Shown piece by piece: positions 44,769-53,427 of a stretch of 64,000 bases of DNA. Within the stretch, counting starts at the first letter, position 1, and each line of letters opens with the position of its first letter. The position numbers were made by a program, and so were the translations under genes. The notes beneath the pieces are model-generated. The model was not told the DNA's origin. It saw only the letters and a program-made list of their open reading frames with translations, and did no database searches. The stretch spans positions 64,001 through 128,000 of the forward strand of contig CBDCNQ010000004.1 of assembly GCA_965219445.1 (NCBI GenBank), in the 5' to 3' direction. This DNA is from Longimicrobiales bacterium (GTDB taxonomy: Bacteria; Gemmatimonadota; Gemmatimonadetes; Longimicrobiales; Gaopeijiaceae).

Positions 44769-46403
44769 CTATATGGGGCAGACCAGGTTCCCCAGTTTCT
44801 CGGTCAGCTTCATGTTCTCCGAGTAATCCACCGGGCAGTCGATGATTACCACCGTGTCGTCGGTAATGGCCTGCTTGAGCGTGGGGACCAGTTCGTCGGC
44901 GGCCTGCACCCGATAGCCCTTGGCCCCGAAGCTCTCCGCGAACTTGACGAAGTCGGGATTGTTGAACGTGATGTGGCTGGGTCGCCCGAAGTGACGAAGC
45001 TGATGCCAGTGAATCAGTCCATACTCGGCGTCATTCCAGATGAGAATGATGATGGGGGTTCCGATACGAAGGGCGGTCTCGATCTCCTGGCAGTTCATCA
45101 GGAATCCCGCATCGCCCGTCACGGTTACCGCGGTATGCTCAGGATGGGCCAGCTTCGCCGCGATGGCACCCGGCACGCCGATCCCCATGGCGGCGAAGCC
45201 ATTCGAAATGATGCAGGTATTGGCGCGCTCGGCCTCATAAAGCCGGGCGGTCCACATCTTGTGGGCGCCCACGTCGCTTATGACGATGTCCTCCGGCTCG
45301 AGCACCTGGCGAAGGTCCCAGAGAATGCGTTGGGGCACCATGGGGAACGCCGGACTCTCCGCGTGCTCGGAGTGCTCCCGGAGTACGAAATCGCGCAGTG
45401 TGCCAAGTTTCGGCTCGTGGTGAGGCTTGGCCAGCTCTCCGATCCGCCGCAGGGACTCACCGACGTCGCCAATGACACCGGCGGCCAGCATGTAGTGCTC
45501 ATCCACTTCGGCCGGCGTTTCGTCGATGTGTAGAAGCTGCGCGTGCTTTTCAGGATGCCATAGGTACGGATGGTACTCGATCATGTCGTAGCCCACACAG
45601 ATGATCACATCGGCCCGGTCGAACCCGCAGTCGACGTAGTCGTGCGCCTGTAGGCCGACCGTGCCGAGACTCAGCGGGTGCGAAAACGGTATCGCGCCCT
45701 TGGCCATGAACGTGGTCGCCACAGGAATCTGGAGCTTCTCGGCAAACGCCTGAAGCTGCTCCGTGGCTCGGGAGCGGATGATCCCGTTCCCAGCCATGAT
45801 GATCGGGTGCTCGGCACTCGAGATGACCTCGGCCGCCTGCTGGACCTTAGCGCCGGGGGGCTCCGGGGTCGCCGCCGCCTGTACCGTGAGAGGCTCCTTT
45901 CCTTCGACATCGGCCCCGGCAATGTTTTCAGGAAAGTCGATGAAGCTGACGCCGGGTTTTTCCGCTAGCGCTTGCTTGAACGCCTTACGAACCACCTCCG
46001 GAATGATCTCCGGCTCCCGGATCTGGGTGCTGTACTTGGTTATGGGCGCGAAGAGGCTGACCAGATCGAGGTGCTGGTGGCTCTCCTTGTGCATCCGCGT
46101 GGTGGCCGCCTGACCCGCGATGGCAACGACCGGCGCCCGGTCCATGTTCGCGTCCGCTACCCCCGTCACCAGATTGGCGGCGCCGGGACCGAGGGTCGAC
46201 AGGCAGACCCCCGCTCTGCCCGTCAGCCGTCCGTACACGTCGGCCATGAAGGCGGCACCCTGCTCATGGCGCGTGGTGATGAAAGCAATCTTGCTGTCGA
46301 GCAAGACATCCATCATGTCGATGTTCTCCTCGCCCGGGATGCCGAAGATGTAGTCGACGTCCTCGTTCTCAAGGCACCGGACGAGGAGCTCGGCGGCTTT
46401 CAT
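44769..46403 (-). CDS. Acetolactate synthase large subunit-like TPP enzyme
   Basis: IFGIPGEEN, TRHEQGAAFMA, STLGPGAANL, TPP motif GDAGF..WND. Confidence 0.92.
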   Translation of the reverse strand: MKAAELLVRCLENEDVDYIFGIPGEENIDMMDVLLDSKIAFITTRHEQGAAFMADVYGRLTGRAGVCLSTLGPGAANLVTGVADANMDRAPVVAIAGQAATTRMHKESHQHLDLVSLFAPITKYSTQIREPEIIPEVVRKAFKQALAEKPGVSFIDFPENIAGADVEGKEPLTVQAAATPEPPGAKVQQAAEVISSAEHPIIMAGNGIIRSRATEQLQAFAEKLQIPVATTFMAKGAIPFSHPLSLGTVGLQAHDYVDCGFDRADVIICVGYDMIEYHPYLWHPEKHAQLLHIDETPAEVDEHYMLAAGVIGDVGESLRRIGELAKPHHEPKLGTLRDFVLREHSEHAESPAFPMVPQRILWDLRQVLEPEDIVISDVGAHKMWTARLYEAERANTCIISNGFAAMGIGVPGAIAAKLAHPEHTAVTVTGDAGFLMNCQEIETALRIGTPIIILIWNDAEYGLIHWHQLRHFGRPSHITFNNPDFVKFAESFGAKGYRVQAADELVPTLKQAITDDTVVIIDCPVDYSENMKLTEKLGNLVCPI

Positions 46404-47010
46404 GGGTTGCGTCCTTTCGTTTCAATGCCCGCGAGCGCTTGCAGTGCCCTCGAGGTGGTGGAGGTGATGACGATGCATCGACGTAGCTGAATTGCCAAGA
46501 GCGAGCAGGTGGAGCTTCCTTACCCACCATGGCGTGCCTCACGATTTTCGTGATATCGACCCTTGACAGCGAAGCAAAGGCTCGCTTTCCCGTCTTCTTG
46601 CGTGCCGGGGTACCCCCGGTGAGCTTGCCCAATCCCTCAACTGACCATCGAAGGGACACTCGAATGATTCCGGTTTTCCTTCTTAGCAAGGAGATCACAC
46701 CATGACGAGCAAAGCCAGAATTCTGGTGACTGGAGCGACCGGGAATACCGGAGGTGCGGTCGCGCGTCAGCTCCTTCATGAGGGCCACCCCGTGAACGCC
46801 CTCGTGCGGAGGCAGGATCATAGGGCGGACGCGCTCGCCAAGGGAGCTAGGATCAAAGGCATCATAGGGGCATGGCGACCGCTACCGGTACCGATCAGCA
46901 GCGAAGCAGCCCGAAGACGAAGAGGCGTTCTCCTCCGGGAACGGGTGCGCGTTCATCATTATTCGCGCAAGCAAGCAACCCAACCCGTCCTATCCAAGAG
47001 GAGAACGCCC

Positions 47011-48066
47011 ATGGAGAGATATATCGGACTCGACGCACACGCGTCGAGCTGCACGCTGGGGATTGTAGGCCCCAGCGGCAAGCGCTTGGGCTCGCAGGTG
47101 GTGGAGACGAACGCGCGGGCGCTGATCGAGGTGCTGCGAGGGATTCCGAGGAACCGGCACTTATGCCTGGAAGAAGGGACGCTGTCGGGGTGGCTGTACG
47201 AGGTGCTGGAGCCGCACGTGGAGGAGCTGACGGTGGCGGGGGTCGGCAAGAGCCGGGGCCCGAAGACCGACAAGCTGGACGCGTTTGCCCTGGCGGAGAA
47301 GCTGCGGATCGGATCACTGGAGACGAGGGTCTACAAGAACCGGGGCCAGTTCAGGCGGCTGGGGGAACGGGCGAAGAGCTACGACTTCCTGGTCGGCGAC
47401 ACGGTGCGGGTGAAGAACCGGCTCAAGAGCGTGCTGCGCTCGAGAGGAGTGGCCTACGGCGCGGGGCGCTCGGTCTACTTAAAGCGCGACCGGGAGGAGT
47501 GGTTGGCCAAGCTGCCGGAAGCGAGCAGGACGACGGCCGGGTTGCTGTACGAGGAGCACGACGCACTCGTGGCATTGAGGGCGAAGGCCGAGAAGGCGTT
47601 GCTGGCGGAAGCACGCAAGCATCGAGAGTGGCATGTGCTGAAGACGTGCCCGGGTCTGGGTCCGATCCGGACGGCGGAGCTCCTGCCGGTGGTGGTGACG
47701 CCGTACCGGTTCCAGAGCCGGAGCAGGTTCTGGGCGTACTGCGGACTGGGCGTCGTGATGCGGAGCTCGTCGGACTGGGTGCGGGGTCCGGGTGGGCGGT
47801 GGGTAAGGGAACCGGTACAGCAGACGCGGGGGCTGAATCGGAACTTCAACCACACGCTGAAGCGTGTGTTCAAGGGCGCGGCGACGACGGTGATCGGTCG
47901 GGCCGAAAACGAACCCTTGTACCGCCACTACGAGCGACTCCTGGAGGGGGGCACGAAGCCGAATCTGGCGAAGCTGACGATCGCGCGTCAGCTCGCCTCG
48001 ATCGTGCTAGCGGTGTGGCGCACGGGCGAAGCGTACGACCCCAAGAGACTGGAAGCGACGGAGTAA
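47011..48066 (+). CDS. IS110-family DEDD recombinase (transposase), 351 aa
   Basis: GAGGAG RBS; YIGLDAH (D), CLEEG (E), KTDKLDA (DD); C-terminal PGLGPI..YCGL..RSSS domain. Confidence 0.93.
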   Translation: MERYIGLDAHASSCTLGIVGPSGKRLGSQVVETNARALIEVLRGIPRNRHLCLEEGTLSGWLYEVLEPHVEELTVAGVGKSRGPKTDKLDAFALAEKLRIGSLETRVYKNRGQFRRLGERAKSYDFLVGDTVRVKNRLKSVLRSRGVAYGAGRSVYLKRDREEWLAKLPEASRTTAGLLYEEHDALVALRAKAEKALLAEARKHREWHVLKTCPGLGPIRTAELLPVVVTPYRFQSRSRFWAYCGLGVVMRSSSDWVRGPGGRWVREPVQQTRGLNRNFNHTLKRVFKGAATTVIGRAENEPLYRHYERLLEGGTKPNLAKLTIARQLASIVLAVWRTGEAYDPKRLEATE

Positions 48067-48139
48067 ACCGGCCTGGGATCGGCGAGCGTGGGGTCGAAAG
48101 CGGTCACAACATGGGGTCCGACGAAACGGAAGCGAACCG

Positions 48140-48330
48140 GTTACAGGGGACAGCATCCATACACACCGTGGGCCGGGGCAGAGAGCCCAAGCCCCCACTC
48201 AAAGGCTATGCACCCCTGGAGAGCCGAACGAAGCGATGGGCCACAGAGTCCCAGATAGAAGGATGGTTCCCGCTCCAGAGCGGAGAACGCGACGGCTGTG
48301 AACGTCTTCCGGACTGCGATGCGGACCCTG
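48140..48330 (+). ncRNA. Putative bridge/seek RNA of the IS110 element (boundaries approximate)
   Basis: Stem cagggg/cccctg encloses an internal loop with tacacacc (48160-48167) and tcaaagg (48199-48205), matching the insertion site; atagaagg (48255-48262) matches the element right end plus core. Confidence 0.75.
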
Positions 48331-48551
48331 CGAGCGCACCCCTCCCCACCCTGAGTCGTCGACCGGGCAATCCAAACCATGCGGACGCCGACGGTCAAAA
48401 AATGAGCCGACGGCGCGTGGGGAAGGTGCGTCTTGACCGCCAGCCCCATAGAAGGGTGTGTAAAAAAAGAGGCGACGTACCTTTCCGCTAGGTAGTAAGA
48501 AGTTAACCAGCGAATCCCGGGTGAGCGCCCGGGGGAAAGGAACGATGCCTC

Positions 48552-49797
48552 GTGAGGAAGAATATGGTGGGACCCGAGAGTGAGTCCAGCACGCCGACGT
48601 GGGAGTGCTTGGAAGCGCTGGTTCGTGAGAAGGCCCAGGAGATGGTCCAGCGGATTCTGGAGGAGGAAGTGACGGAGTTGCTCGGCCGGGAGAAGTCGGA
48701 GCGGAAGACGGTCGTAGACCCGGCGCCAGGCTACCGCAACGGCTACGGCAAGGCTCGGCGGCTGGCGATGAGCTCGGGCACGATCATGCTCCGACGGCCC
48801 CGGGTTCGAGGCATTGAGGAGCGGTTCGAGAGTCGGGTGTTGCCGTTGTTCGCACGACGGACGAAGGAGGTGGGTGCTCTGCTTCCGGAGCTGTATCTGC
48901 ACGGGCTGGCGGAGGGAGACTTCGAGCTGGCGATGCGGGGCCTGCTGGGCGAGGGGGCCCCGTTGTCGAAGTCTTCGATTCGGAGACTGCGGGCGGGATG
49001 GACGGCGGAGTTCGAGGAATGGAGCCAGCGTCGCCTGGAGGGCCGTGAGGTCGTCTACGTATGGGCGGACGGGATCTACGTGAAGGCAGGGCTCGAGCGG
49101 GACAAGGCAGCGCTGCTGGTGGTTCTCGGTGCGATGCGAGACGGGACGAAGGAGGTGTTGGCCCTGAGATCGGGCTACCGAGAGTCGGTCGAGTCCTGCT
49201 CCGAGGTGTTGCGGGATCTGAAGGCACGCGGCATCGAGGCGCCCCGGCTTCTGATGGCGGACGGCAACGCGGCGATCTGGGGCGCAGTACGGGCAGGTAT
49301 GGCCTGAGGCGGGCGAGCAACGGTGCTGGAACCACAAGATGAGGAACGTGCTGGACCGGCTGCCGCAGCGGGAGCAGAGCGAGGCGAAGGATCTTCTCAG
49401 GACCGTGGTCTACGCACCGAGGCGGTCCGAGGCGCTGAAGGCCCGTGAGGCGTTCGCCAGGCGCTACAGACCGTGGTATCCGAAGGCGGTGGATGTACTC
49501 GAGGACGACTGGGAGCGGATGGTGGCGTTCTACGACTTCCCCGAGGATCACTGGAAGCATCTACGCACGACGAACGTGGTCGAGAGCCCGTTCGCTGCGC
49601 TACGGCTCAGGACGACGGCGGCGAAGCGATTCAAGCGGGTCGAGAGCGCTACGGCGCTGATCTGGAAGTTGCTCTTGGTGGCCGAGAAGCGGTTCCGAAG
49701 GCTCGACGCTCCTCACCTCCTCAAGGACGTGTTTGAAGGAAGGAAGTTCGAAGACGGAAAGCCCGTCTCAACCCAACAGCGGAAGAATGCCGCCTGA
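48552..49797 (+). pseudogene. IS256-family (Mutator) transposase with +1 frameshift near 49291-49293
   Basis: YRNGY, LYLHGL..GDF, WADG, MADG. Removing one G gives AVRQVWPEAGEQRCWNHKMRNV, continuing to LRTTNVVES. Confidence 0.88.
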
Positions 49798-50985
49798 TAC
49801 GTTTACACACCTATTGACCCAACCTCCGCCAAGGCGGGGGCCAAGGTAATCGTGGGGGACCTCCTCGAGCCCGAGGACCTCCGGCACGCCATGACAGACG
49901 CGCAGAGGGCCTACTACATGGCGCCATGGGCTCCAAACCAACTTCACGGGGCGATGAACTTCGCCGTGGCCGCGGCGGATTCCCGCTTGGAAGTGGTGGT
50001 CGCCATCACGCAGTGGCTGGCGCAACCGCAGCACCCGTCCGTCGCCACGCGGCAGAGCTATCTGACCGATCGAGTCCTCGACTGGATGCCGGGCGTCGAT
50101 TCGATCAGGGTGAATCCCGGATGGTTTGCGGACAACTACATGGCGGTGCTGGGCACCGTCGCGCAGCTCGGGATCTTCCCTTACGCGCTCGGCGAAGGAA
50201 AGGCCGCGCCGGTATCAAACGAGGACATCGCCCGCGTCGCGGTAGGGGCGTTGGTGAACCCCGGGCCCCACGTCGGCAAATACTACCGACCCAGCGGTCC
50301 CGAGCTCCTCGATCCCCATCAGCTCGCGGCGATCTTCGGCAAGGTGCTTGGGCGCTCCGTCACCTACCGGGACATGTCCCCTCGGATGTTCAACAAAGCA
50401 CTAAAGGTCGTGGGCATGAGCCCCGTGCTCATCAGTCAGCTCCAGCACTACCTGGAAGAGTATCGTCGCGGAGGCTTCGCTGCGGGGGCGCCCAACGATG
50501 TGGTTCAGCGCGTCGGCGGTTCCGCCCCCGAGGACTTCGAGACGATCACACGCCGGTACGTGGCGGCGAACCCCATGACCCGTCGTAGCTTGGCGAACAA
50601 GCTCCGCGCCATCGCGGAGTTCGCGAAGATCGTTCTGGCCCGGACACCGGACGTCTCTGCATACGAACAGAGGCAGAATCATCCCTTGCTAAGAGACCCG
50701 AAGTACGGCTTGGACTACGCGCCTTGGCGTAGATCACATGCCGTCCCGAACGCGTACGGGCTCGAGGGGGTTTTCAACCAGGGACACCTCCACCCGTCCG
50801 ACCAACGTACGTCCGGGATCCAGGACTCCATGGAGGCTGCTCAATGAAGATGGCTATGCATGCCCCTCCATCGATTGGAGGGCCGGGGGCGGACCGCGGC
50901 TGATCACCTTGCCCGGACAACGTCGACAGGTTCTGATGCTGAGAACCCTGGCCTTGGGCTTCATCCGAACAGCGAGGACGTAGCC

Positions 50986-53427
50986 ATGAAGCATCGCTCC
51001 CTGTATGTCGTTCTAGGCGTGGCGGCGATGGTCGCCTCTGGGTCAGATCCGGCGCGCGGGCAGGACCGCGAGGTCGTGGGCATCGGCGTCGTCGTTGACG
51101 GCCCGTGGGATCGAAACGACGAGATTCAAGATCGCTTCGAGCAAGAAATCATCGCGCTTCTTTCCGGCGATTTCGACGTACGGTTTCCTGACCAGGCACA
51201 GATCGACGGCGCCTGGACGATGGAGGGCGTGCGGAACGCGCTCGACAGGTTGCTCGAAGATCCGGATGTGGACCTGGTCCTCACCGTCGGCGTGCTCGGC
51301 TCGGTAGAGGCGGGACGTCGCGCGGTTCTCCTGAAGCCAGTCATCGCTCCCCTCGTCTGGAGCGCGAGACTGCAGGGGTTGCCCCTAACGGATAGCGGCA
51401 CGAGTGGCGTCACCAACTTGAACTACCTTGAACATCCCTCGTCATTCCCGAGGGACGTCGAGCTCTTCAGGGAGGTCGCACCGTTTCGGACGCTCGGCGT
51501 CCTGCGTGGTGAGGCGTACGTCTCGGGTGCTGCAGAGCTGTGGACGGGATTGGAGCAGGTCGCGGACAGCTTGGGGCAGGTCGCGGACAGCTTGGAGCTC
51601 GAGTTGGTGTCGGTCCCGGTATCGGCGTCGGCCGATTCGGCCCTCGCCGCGATTCCGCCGGACGTTGAGGCCGTGTATCTCTTCCCGTTGACCCAGCTCG
51701 ACCCGGGCCAGTTCGACGTGCTCGTCGAGGGCCTCATCGAACGGCGGCTGCCGAGCTTCTCGTTCTTGGGCGTCGAAGAGGTGGAGCGGGGCATCCTCCT
51801 CGGGCTCAGTCCCGAAACGTTCTGGGACCGGCTGGCGAGGAGAGTCGCCCTGAATGCTCAGCGAATCCTCCTCGGCGAGGACGCAGGGACTCTCTCCGTC
51901 GGCATTACATATGGCGAACGGATGACACTGAACATGCGGACGGCTGATGCGATCGGGATCTCGCCGTCGTGGGAGGTAGTCACCGAGGCCGATGCGATCG
52001 ACGACGCACCCGAAGAGGGGCCCCGGTTGACGCTTGCCGAAGCGGTACGTGGGGCGTTGGACGCCAACCTGGATTTGGAGGTCGAGGACCATGTGGTGGC
52101 CGCCGGCTCGAAAAACGTTGGATTGGCTCGTTCTCAACTCCTACCACAGCTCGACGTGTCCGCACTCACAACCTTCATCGACGCGGACCGAGCCGAGGCC
52201 AGCGTTGGCAGCCAGCCGCAGCGAGCCCTCGTTGGCGGCGTCACTGCGACGCAGCTCCTATTTTCCGAGCCAGCATGGGCGAGCCTGGCTATCCAAGATG
52301 ACGTGCAGCTCTCCCGGGAGGCTCAGCGGGATGCGCTCCGGCTCGACGTCATCTCCGAGGCGGCCACGGCGTACTTGAACGTGCTGCGCGCCAACACCTT
52401 CGAGCGGATCCAGCGGGAGAACCTCCGGCTCACACGCGCGAATCTCGAACGGGCTCGAGTCCGCCGGCTCATTGGGGTGGCGAGCCCGGCAGAAGAGTTC
52501 CGGTGGGAAAGCGAGATCGCACGGGGACGCAGCGCAACGATACAAGCGAACTCACACCGCAATGTCGTGGAGATCGCGCTCAACCAGGTGCGACATCGGC
52601 CGCTCGAGGAGCCGTTTTCGACGATGGAGGTGGGACTGGAGGATCCCTCCCTGCTCACGGCTGACACGCGCTTTTTCGACTACTTCGGCAATCGGGCCAT
52701 ATTCCGTGTTTTCCGCACTTTCATGACTCGTGAAGCCTTGGCCGCGGCACCCGAGCTCGAGGGCCTAATGGCGGCGATCGACGCACAGCGCCGCGTGCAA
52801 AGCTCCGCATCCAATAGCTTCTGGGCGCCCACCGTGGCGCTTCAGGCAAGCTTGACCGGCCGCCTGGCGGAGGGAGGAGCCGGGACGCAATTCAGCCCGC
52901 AGCTACCGCCGGGATCGCCCGATCTCTCCGGGTTGTTTCCCCAGGCCAACGACGTGAATCTGAGCCTGGGGCTCAATGTATCGTTGCCCGTCTTCTCGGG
53001 TGGAAGGCGCTTCTTGGAGCGCTCGCAGAGTTACGAAGAGGTCACCCGACTCGAGGTCCAGCAATCGGCAGTCGGCGAACGTGTCGAGCAGCGGATTCGT
53101 ACCGCTCTTCATTTCGCGGGCTCGAGCTACGCAGGCATCGGGCTTGCCCGCGAGGGAGCCGACGCCGCGCGCAACAACCTCGAGCTGGTGGGTGACGCGT
53201 ACGCGCAGGGCCTCGTTTCGATCATCGACCTTATCGATGCCCAAAACGCCTCGCTGGTAGCCGATCTCGGAGCCGCAACGGCGGTATACGATTTCCTCGT
53301 TGATTGGGTCGAAGCGGAGCGTGCCGTCGGGCGTTTCAGTCTTTTCATGACCGCCGCCGAAAAGGACGATTTCTTCGATCGGCTGGAGGCCTTTGTCGCC
53401 GCGAGCGGTGGCGACACGCAACGTTGA
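50986..53427 (+). CDS. TolC-family outer membrane efflux protein with N-terminal ABC substrate-binding-like domain
   Basis: Signal peptide; about 330-aa periplasmic-binding-type region (IGVVVDG..LPSFS..VERGILLG..LNMRTADAIG); then OEP repeats (LTLAEAV..ARSQLLPQL..YAQGLVSIIDLIDAQ). Confidence 0.85.
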   Translation: MKHRSLYVVLGVAAMVASGSDPARGQDREVVGIGVVVDGPWDRNDEIQDRFEQEIIALLSGDFDVRFPDQAQIDGAWTMEGVRNALDRLLEDPDVDLVLTVGVLGSVEAGRRAVLLKPVIAPLVWSARLQGLPLTDSGTSGVTNLNYLEHPSSFPRDVELFREVAPFRTLGVLRGEAYVSGAAELWTGLEQVADSLGQVADSLELELVSVPVSASADSALAAIPPDVEAVYLFPLTQLDPGQFDVLVEGLIERRLPSFSFLGVEEVERGILLGLSPETFWDRLARRVALNAQRILLGEDAGTLSVGITYGERMTLNMRTADAIGISPSWEVVTEADAIDDAPEEGPRLTLAEAVRGALDANLDLEVEDHVVAAGSKNVGLARSQLLPQLDVSALTTFIDADRAEASVGSQPQRALVGGVTATQLLFSEPAWASLAIQDDVQLSREAQRDALRLDVISEAATAYLNVLRANTFERIQRENLRLTRANLERARVRRLIGVASPAEEFRWESEIARGRSATIQANSHRNVVEIALNQVRHRPLEEPFSTMEVGLEDPSLLTADTRFFDYFGNRAIFRVFRTFMTREALAAAPELEGLMAAIDAQRRVQSSASNSFWAPTVALQASLTGRLAEGGAGTQFSPQLPPGSPDLSGLFPQANDVNLSLGLNVSLPVFSGGRRFLERSQSYEEVTRLEVQQSAVGERVEQRIRTALHFAGSSYAGIGLAREGADAARNNLELVGDAYAQGLVSIIDLIDAQNASLVADLGAATAVYDFLVDWVEAERAVGRFSLFMTAAEKDDFFDRLEAFVAASGGDTQR

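Follow-up and report, generated by a model that had tools for sequence, protein, structure and literature searches.

The 64,000-bp window analysed in this work (positions 64,001 to 128,000 of contig CBDCNQ010000004.1, assembly GCA_965219445.1, of a Longimicrobiales bacterium) carries a nested insertion, in which a 1596-bp insertion sequence (IS) of the IS110 family lies within the left terminal inverted repeat (IRL) of an IS256-family element, which in turn interrupts an nmrA-like gene. The explanation that we hold with high confidence is that this IS1111-type element, equipped with a two-loop RNA, fills the left ends of IS256 copies individually after IS256 has spread. IS256 would have moved first, generating duplications of 8-9 bp (here in nmrA); the two-loop RNA, derived from the 3' non-coding region of the IS110-family element, would locate the sequence TCAAAG-GGTGTGTA in the IRL; and the element would then enter each left end separately, at the same base and in the same orientation, so that the host IS256 would offer many landing sites at which no further gene is disrupted. 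That an RNA guide directs the element to the IS256 left end, and that this end serves it as a landing site in many copies, had been proposed in a preliminary description of this DNA, and both points are strongly supported by the copy census, the match between guides and target, and the covariation of guides and flanks.

At the locus, the outer 13 bp of the IRL (the tip, 46844-46856, forward strand), which contain the left half of the IS110 target and whose intact form is known from other genomes, are separated from the inner 12 bp (48453-48464, forward strand), corresponding to the right half of the target, by the IS110-family element (46857-48452, forward strand). Removal of these 1596 bp rebuilds a 25-bp IRL, which aligns without gaps to the uninterrupted right inverted repeat (IRR, 49802-49826, reverse strand) with 20/25 identical positions, exactly as first described. 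The rebuilt IRL is moreover the common intact form, present letter for letter and without interruption elsewhere (40 of the 42 inner-IRL matches in genome G044 and 16 of 19 metagenome matches), which answers the question raised earlier about intact IS256 copies. While the length given for the interrupting element was right, the designation of AAGG as the core was not, and the shared core is AG (AAG here), as evidenced by the right junction in G042 (...AAG|A) and by the left end of the relatives, which invariably begins with GCATC. Judging from the junctions of relatives, the last G of AAGG is an element base on the left side and a target base on the right one.

In the source genome (G000; 4.56 Mb in 5 contigs, 92% complete), 24 left ends of the element and one short end of a distant relative were identified. 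Inspection of the flanks of the other copies, suggested at the outset as a check, revealed that 23 of the 24 left ends follow an IS256 IRL tip, the remaining copy (C2:336726) being placed at an unrelated site with a partial guide match. On the right side, the exact inner part of the IRL follows 21 of the 24 copies, and the other three comprise a copy adjoined by a group II intron, a truncated one and the off-target one. Altogether, 23 of the 28 IRLs are occupied vs 0 of the 29 IRRs (Fisher p = 2e-11). Thus, the claim that only the IRL fits the guide holds for this genome, but not for a relative in G041 (L102, identical with L029; G041:C1:4813432), i.e., a 94%-identical variant with both guides changed, whose left junction lies at an IRR tip; all five inner-IRL matches of G041 are empty.

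Downstream of the recombinase gene, positions 48140-48285 fold as two stem-loops with internal loops. The first, a predicted target-binding stem-loop (48144-48218, forward strand), whose scaffold is conserved in relatives, exposes both guides in the unpaired sides of one internal loop: TACACACC (48160-48167, forward strand) on the 5' side, complementary to the right target half (top strand), and TCAAAG (48199-48204, forward strand) on the 3' side, identical to the left target half including the core. The top-strand match (48160) precedes the bottom-strand match (48199), which is the IS1111 order. The second, a predicted donor-binding stem-loop (48221-48269, forward strand), contains GATG (48235) and ATAGAAG (48255), which match the joined element ends. 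Both target motifs occurred together in 0 of 20,000 dinucleotide shuffles, and the 14-bp target TCAAAG-GGTGTGTA is the middle of the IRL of one IS256 lineage. The two-loop fold is a feature of this sub-region; the fold of the whole 392-nt 3' region was not clearly beyond that of shuffled sequences (z = -1.54), and an Rfam scan of 46000-51000 gave no matches.

The RNA scaffold is kept in relatives down to approximately 50% protein identity, and the two guides vary. For the covariation analysis, loci matching the scaffold pattern were used, with one representative per guide set, kin among them not being independent. Left guides shared 64 non-core matches with their own left flanks vs 42.1 in permutations (15 guide pairs; reached in 0 of 20,000), and for right guides a fixed register gave 78 vs 52.8 over 20 pairs (reached in 1 of 20,000), while choosing the best register out of three, in the data and in the permutations alike, gave 115 vs 75.9 over 19 guides (0 of 20,000). 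A single fixed register for the right guide was rejected, as it suits only some of the relatives. Relatives at 76-84% protein identity have different guides and flanks unrelated to IS256, which indicates that the targeting of IS256 is a recent specialisation of one sub-lineage.

It might be considered that the element is recruited to IS256 ends by a protein or a DNA structure rather than by RNA base pairing, and a non-IS256 site (C1:205750) which is empty though 12 of its 14 target bases match would be in line with that. We regard such recruitment as extremely improbable: the off-target insertions (C2:336726, L119, and L245) partly keep the guide match and follow the guide without any IS256 end, the relatives at 76-84% protein identity combine other guides with other flanks, and the IRRs, which bind the same transposase, are nevertheless empty.

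Concerning the class of the element, its ends were set by the IS1111 rule, according to which 7 bp on the left and 3 bp on the right lie outside the subterminal repeats (PMC11187229). The subterminal inverted repeats (46864-46877, forward strand, and 48438-48449, reverse strand) are 12-14 bp long and imperfect (one substitution plus indels), and the 7+3 spacing fits; for IS1111 elements, repeats of 11-13 bp with the same extensions are described. The recombinase (47011-48066, forward strand; 351 aa) consists of a DEDD RuvC domain (D8, E54, D87, and D90) and a C-terminal Tnp domain with a catalytic serine (S253). It is matched above the cut-off by profiles PF01548 (39.3 bits) and PF02371 (32.5 bits), and a weak alignment to IS621 (E 0.019) puts S253 on the catalytic serine of the latter. 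The gene is flanked by 154 bp of non-coding DNA upstream and 386 bp downstream, and the element has a specific target, one orientation, a short shared core and no true target duplication. By the features tested, it belongs with the IS1111-type RNA-guided elements. In-silico joining of the ends brings together a -35-like hexamer TTGACC (48433-48438, forward strand) and a -10-like hexamer CATCAT (46860-46865, forward strand) as TTGACC-17-CATCAT, a predicted circle-junction promoter; in the linear element, a scan for promoters gave no sigma-70 site. From the known biochemistry of IS1111/IS110 elements, we infer circle formation, an active junction promoter and expression of the RNA.

Whether the IS110-family element enters IS256 copies one by one or travels with them can be judged from the haplotypes of both partners. 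Its right end adjoins several different IS256 haplotypes; in 11 IS256 bodies of identical sequence, no two of the 11 IS110 elements are alike (on average, 16 columns differ); and one IS110 haplotype pattern occurs in two IS256 haplotypes (C4:1173281 and C5:524091). In G132, none of the three near-identical IS256 copies that retain intact duplications is occupied, and the occupied copies differ mutually. The varied haplotypes, the 11 bodies and the pattern in G132 favour separate insertion after the spread of IS256, and independent insertion fits better than joint movement.

The reverse would be a founder IS256::IS110 composite amplified as a unit by the IS256 transposase, with most copies not separate insertions and the host still mobile. 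Eight occupied composites do have a matching duplication pair at their own ends (one mismatch allowed), but such duplications are expected under both models. In G042 an A follows the core in each of the five occupied IRLs, a variant that is absent among the empty IRLs listed, and the IS110 copies in these five are 0-6 bases apart; later recombination could also have scrambled the IS110 haplotypes. Against joint amplification stand the 11 different sequences in identical bodies, the pattern shared by two IS256 haplotypes, and the fact that IS256 spreads without its passenger (41 empty copies in G044 and recent empty copies in G132), and we find it improbable.

Several results weigh against the explanation favoured here, the shared variant of G042 among them. 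Among the IS110 copies, which have a mosaic structure, the four-gamete test fails for 189 of 300 site pairs, and flanks have been swapped between copies; this recombination blurs the test of independence. G044 has one apparently intact IS110 copy beside 41 empty perfect targets, and G132 keeps five perfect empty targets beside six occupied ones. The family model NF033542 matches the recombinase with 112.8 bits, under the NCBIfam cut-off of 140. Finally, contigs of 4 of the 24 listed sequencing runs were aligned to 46000-50600, and among the joints listed there was no circle joint, no empty IRL at this locus and no intact nmrA. These contigs give only thin cover of the unique flanks; their listed loose ends before 48452 finish in a perfect IRL tip in all four runs.

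In the sample of 301 genomes of the family, 26 had an empty IRL of this type and seven an occupied junction (by coordinates, G157, G137, G099, and G088 duplicate G044, G042, G043, and G041, respectively). In seven genomes other than the source genome, 24 of 28 left junctions are IRL tips, one is the IRR tip of G041, and three are other sites, counting copies of at least 91% identity and leaving out duplicates and two distant relatives. The perfect empty targets of G044 and G132 imply that the presence of the element does not mean saturation, and saturation in every genome with the element is ruled out by such targets in G044, G132, G007, and G086. One occupied insertion (C2:603203 in the source genome and L100, G044:C13) is common to two genomes of different genera, with 2.1 kb of flank and the element 99% identical, which indicates that the element can arrive on transferred DNA. 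In G007, which belongs to the same genus as the source genome, three IS256 ends (L150, L153, and L156 on G007:C7) have a perfect empty target, but in place of the outer tip they carry a different sequence, common to all three, which probably represents a further inserted element. G086 (L249, L252, and L255) carries a variant with one base changed in the left guide, inserted in IRLs that differ at the same position; a compensatory change was rejected, since the guide changes from T to C and the target ends from T to A.

The five empty IRLs of the source genome deserve separate attention, because all of them are altered inside the target, each in a different way (one added G, two A-to-G changes, one lost A, and one change on the right side). 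Four (C4:199262, C4:1221680, C5:267938, and C5:483712) are found on IS256 bodies identical to an occupied copy, while the fifth (C5:635832) belongs to an older, diverged element and is the one with the right-side change. Among 15 copies of the same haplotype, three events were counted in 210 target bp vs one in 20,430 body bp (P = 4e-6), and changed targets amount to 5/5 empty ends here vs 0/41 in G044 (p = 7e-7). This difference in rate, together with the 41 perfect targets of G044, shows that the changes are not background mutations, which leaves two possible sources, the action of the recombinase and errors in the consensus of mixed loci. No flank was common to the five empty copies and any locus compared from other genomes.

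One reading is that the changed IRLs are scars of imprecise IS110 excision or of aborted insertion, the change immunising the site, and we consider this quite possible, if slightly short of an even chance. The concentration of events in the target and the four changed ends on bodies identical to an occupied copy argue for it, as does the fact that three of the changes introduce a G, the base that the element's own right end has beside the core. It would also agree with IS621 products having mismatches beside the core that require repair (PMC13626964 and PMC11208158). In one orthologous pair of empty IRLs, aligned over 2616 bp with 99.2% identity, the G044 member is perfect and the G043 member is altered at the core, which weakly supports a recombinase origin; however, the change in G043 is possibly a single event and a separate cluster of four mismatches occurs elsewhere in the same alignment, so that its P of 5e-5 is overstated. 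Among the loose ends listed for the run contigs, with their thin cover of the unique flanks, no scar was seen. For ISEc11 and CazIS110-1 the empty target was not regenerated (PMC11187229; 10.1101/2025.10.25.684509), which argues against excision scars and not against aborted insertions.

Alternatively, the changes may be errors of consensus calling or polishing, arising where the population contains both filled and empty states of a locus or where reads of the 23 filled copies are drawn to it, a possibility that we rate somewhat under an even chance. Three changes bring in the base of the right junction and one is a homopolymer shortening, like junction noise, and odd occupied junctions exist as well (C5:1030810 lacks one base, and C7:95741 of G007 has three additional ones). 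On the other hand, errors are otherwise almost absent from the 23 occupied junctions and from the IS256 bodies, and the right-side change of the fifth copy sits in an older, diverged element. Rather unlikely, in our opinion, is a pure survivor effect without extra mutagenesis, in which the empty IRLs are ordinary IS256 variants that never matched the guide. It would suit C5:635832, and the core region of the IRL is indeed variable among IS256 lineages, including genomes without an occupied junction (e.g., G159, G138, G135, G053, G180, and G233), while the 10 empty IRLs of G042 are all of non-matching types, one type being present in eight copies. Yet four private changes on identical bodies would be left unexplained, the background rate is far too low, and in genomes without an occupied junction the IRLs with this tip were perfect in 31 of 31 cases among the matches listed.

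Tentatively, it can be proposed that the recombinase mutates the ends it does not keep, through imprecise excision or aborted insertion that leaves small changes, mostly copied from the element's own junction, and that such ends turn immune; along with the amplification of non-matching ends in G042 and the guide variants residing in variant ends in G086 and G041, this would amount to a readable arms race between two insertion sequences, with more doubt than confidence on our side. If true, its parallel would be the resistance alleles that evolve against gene drives. A general arms race is made less likely by the perfect targets that stay empty alongside the element in G044, G132, G007, and G086, and by the non-matching IRL types in genomes that lack the element; we also discarded the notion that pressure of the IS110-family element is the only source of non-matching IS256 ends, as they are present in genomes without an occupied junction. 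If the changed ends are real, they document side products that bridge recombination leaves in nature, with a bearing on the question of cut-out vs copy-out movement and on the precision of such systems as editing tools.

Returning to the separate filling of IS256 left ends, its consequence for the host would be that the 1.6-kb split of the IRL tip from the inner part stops that IS256 copy from moving; immobilisation of the host is plausible from this anatomy.

In summarising the novelty of the system, the preliminary description spoke of an undescribed target class, which was too strong, since targeting of end repeats has been published for IS4321/IS5075 and IS1383, although IS256 as the target was not found in print. 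Partridge and Hall reportedly demonstrated in 2003 that IS4321/IS5075 (IS1111 family) insert at one position in the terminal inverted repeats of the Tn21 family. They resemble the window element in being IS1111-type elements with a single insertion position in the terminal inverted repeat of a different mobile element, but their host is a Tn21-family transposon, whereas the window element uses the left end only of an IS256-family host. Likewise, IS1383 is said to target the inverted repeats of IS1384 (Muller et al., in 2001), which is a case of an IS110-family element with the inverted repeat of a simple IS as its specific target, differing in the host family. IS1384 belongs to the IS5 family. 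No IS256 target for such elements was found in the open-access literature searched, nor in the searchable supplement text of PMC11187229.

Among RNA-guided relatives, ISEc11, ISKpn4, and ISPa11 (PMC11187229) share with our element the 3' non-coding region, subterminal repeats with 7+3-bp extensions, the order of top-strand before bottom-strand match, the junction promoter (predicted here) and natural reprogramming among relatives. They differ in the target, and the window element has imperfect subterminal repeats and the catalytic-serine motif SS instead of SG. ISEc21, a member of the IS110 group treated in the same source, is also an RNA-guided IS targeting a conserved sequence of another IS family, but its RNA region is upstream and its target is formed by the DDE codons of IS3-family transposase genes, not by an end repeat (PMC11187229). 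The IS621 bridge recombinase (PMC11208160, PMC11208158, and PMC13626964) shares the DEDD and serine residues, the target and donor loops and the 2-nt core, and differs in having the RNA in the left end, the reverse guide order, a repetitive extragenic palindromic (REP) target and only a distant protein similarity (the above-mentioned E of 0.019). The element is a very well supported new member of the known IS1111-type kind with a target not found in print, and it adds the IS256 family to the hosts whose ends are sought by IS1111 elements. With 24 insertions in one genome and a defined 14-bp target, it offers a natural data set of unusual completeness on a single bridge/seekRNA element, in which off-target sites show the tolerated mismatch and relatives carry reprogrammed guides.

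The duplications first noted around the IS256 element in nmrA were confirmed: both 8-bp copies read CGCCAAGG (left, 46836-46843; right, 49827-49834; forward strand), and when the whole IS256 is excised in silico together with one of these copies, an NmrA-like frame of 384 aa results, which no internal stop interrupts. The 5' part of the gene (46702-46843, forward strand) ends in the left duplication and is matched by Pfam NmrA with 35.9 bits, above the cut-off; the 3' part (49835-50847, forward strand) was recognised by profile matches and the restored frame, its match to Pfam NmrA being under the cut-off. An intact nmrA allele, the search for which had been suggested as a check, was found in none of the 12 genomes of the genus, which yielded only a 45%-identical homologue in G005. 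A generic repeat search had neither the split IRL nor the target duplication among its top rows.

The host element is of the IS256 family, with a Mutator-type DDE transposase, terminal repeats of 25 bp (20/25 identical) and duplications of 8-9 bp across the genome copies. In the window copy the transposase gene (48552-49797, forward strand) is frameshifted near 49291, which gives pieces of 251 and 152 aa (open reading frames 48552-49307 and 49339-49797), the first matched by NF033543 above the cut-off (158.3 bits) and both by PF00872. Sibling copies in the genome mostly have an open frame of 423 codons, and in other samples, represented by contigs of the sequencing runs, one base is absent at 49291 relative to the window copy. 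The IRL tip contains a -10-like hexamer (46848-46853), directly downstream of which the IS110 insertion point lies, and the IRR contains an outward -35-like hexamer (49814-49819); together they could form a predicted IS256 circle promoter. A promoter formed at the circle junction is a trait of the IS256 family.

Some of the copies are further rearranged. The composite at C4:1173281 includes the group II intron mentioned above (C4:1169767-1171666; 1.9 kb, with a reverse-transcriptase frame and 13 near-identical copies in the genome), located directly after the IS110 end, three bases into the inner IRL. The nine bases of the left flank of the composite (C4:1173282-1173290) are those of positions 46835-46843 of the window, the right flank being different; right flanks are likewise shared at C2:600543 and C3:149204, and IS256 copies on C2, C3, C4, and C5 have duplications swapped between copies (e.g., C2:416881 with C2:467815). 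Such swaps suggest repeat-mediated inversions or translocations, or else misjoins. At C2:661602 there is a lone left end without a gene, from a related element type using a GGATAG target. Tandem duplications of the 3' part of the element were also observed, at C5:1612733-1613241, where the guide RNA region is included and two right ends result, and at L025 of G043, which has three RNA regions; in both cases the duplicated units are joined at short matches to the core.

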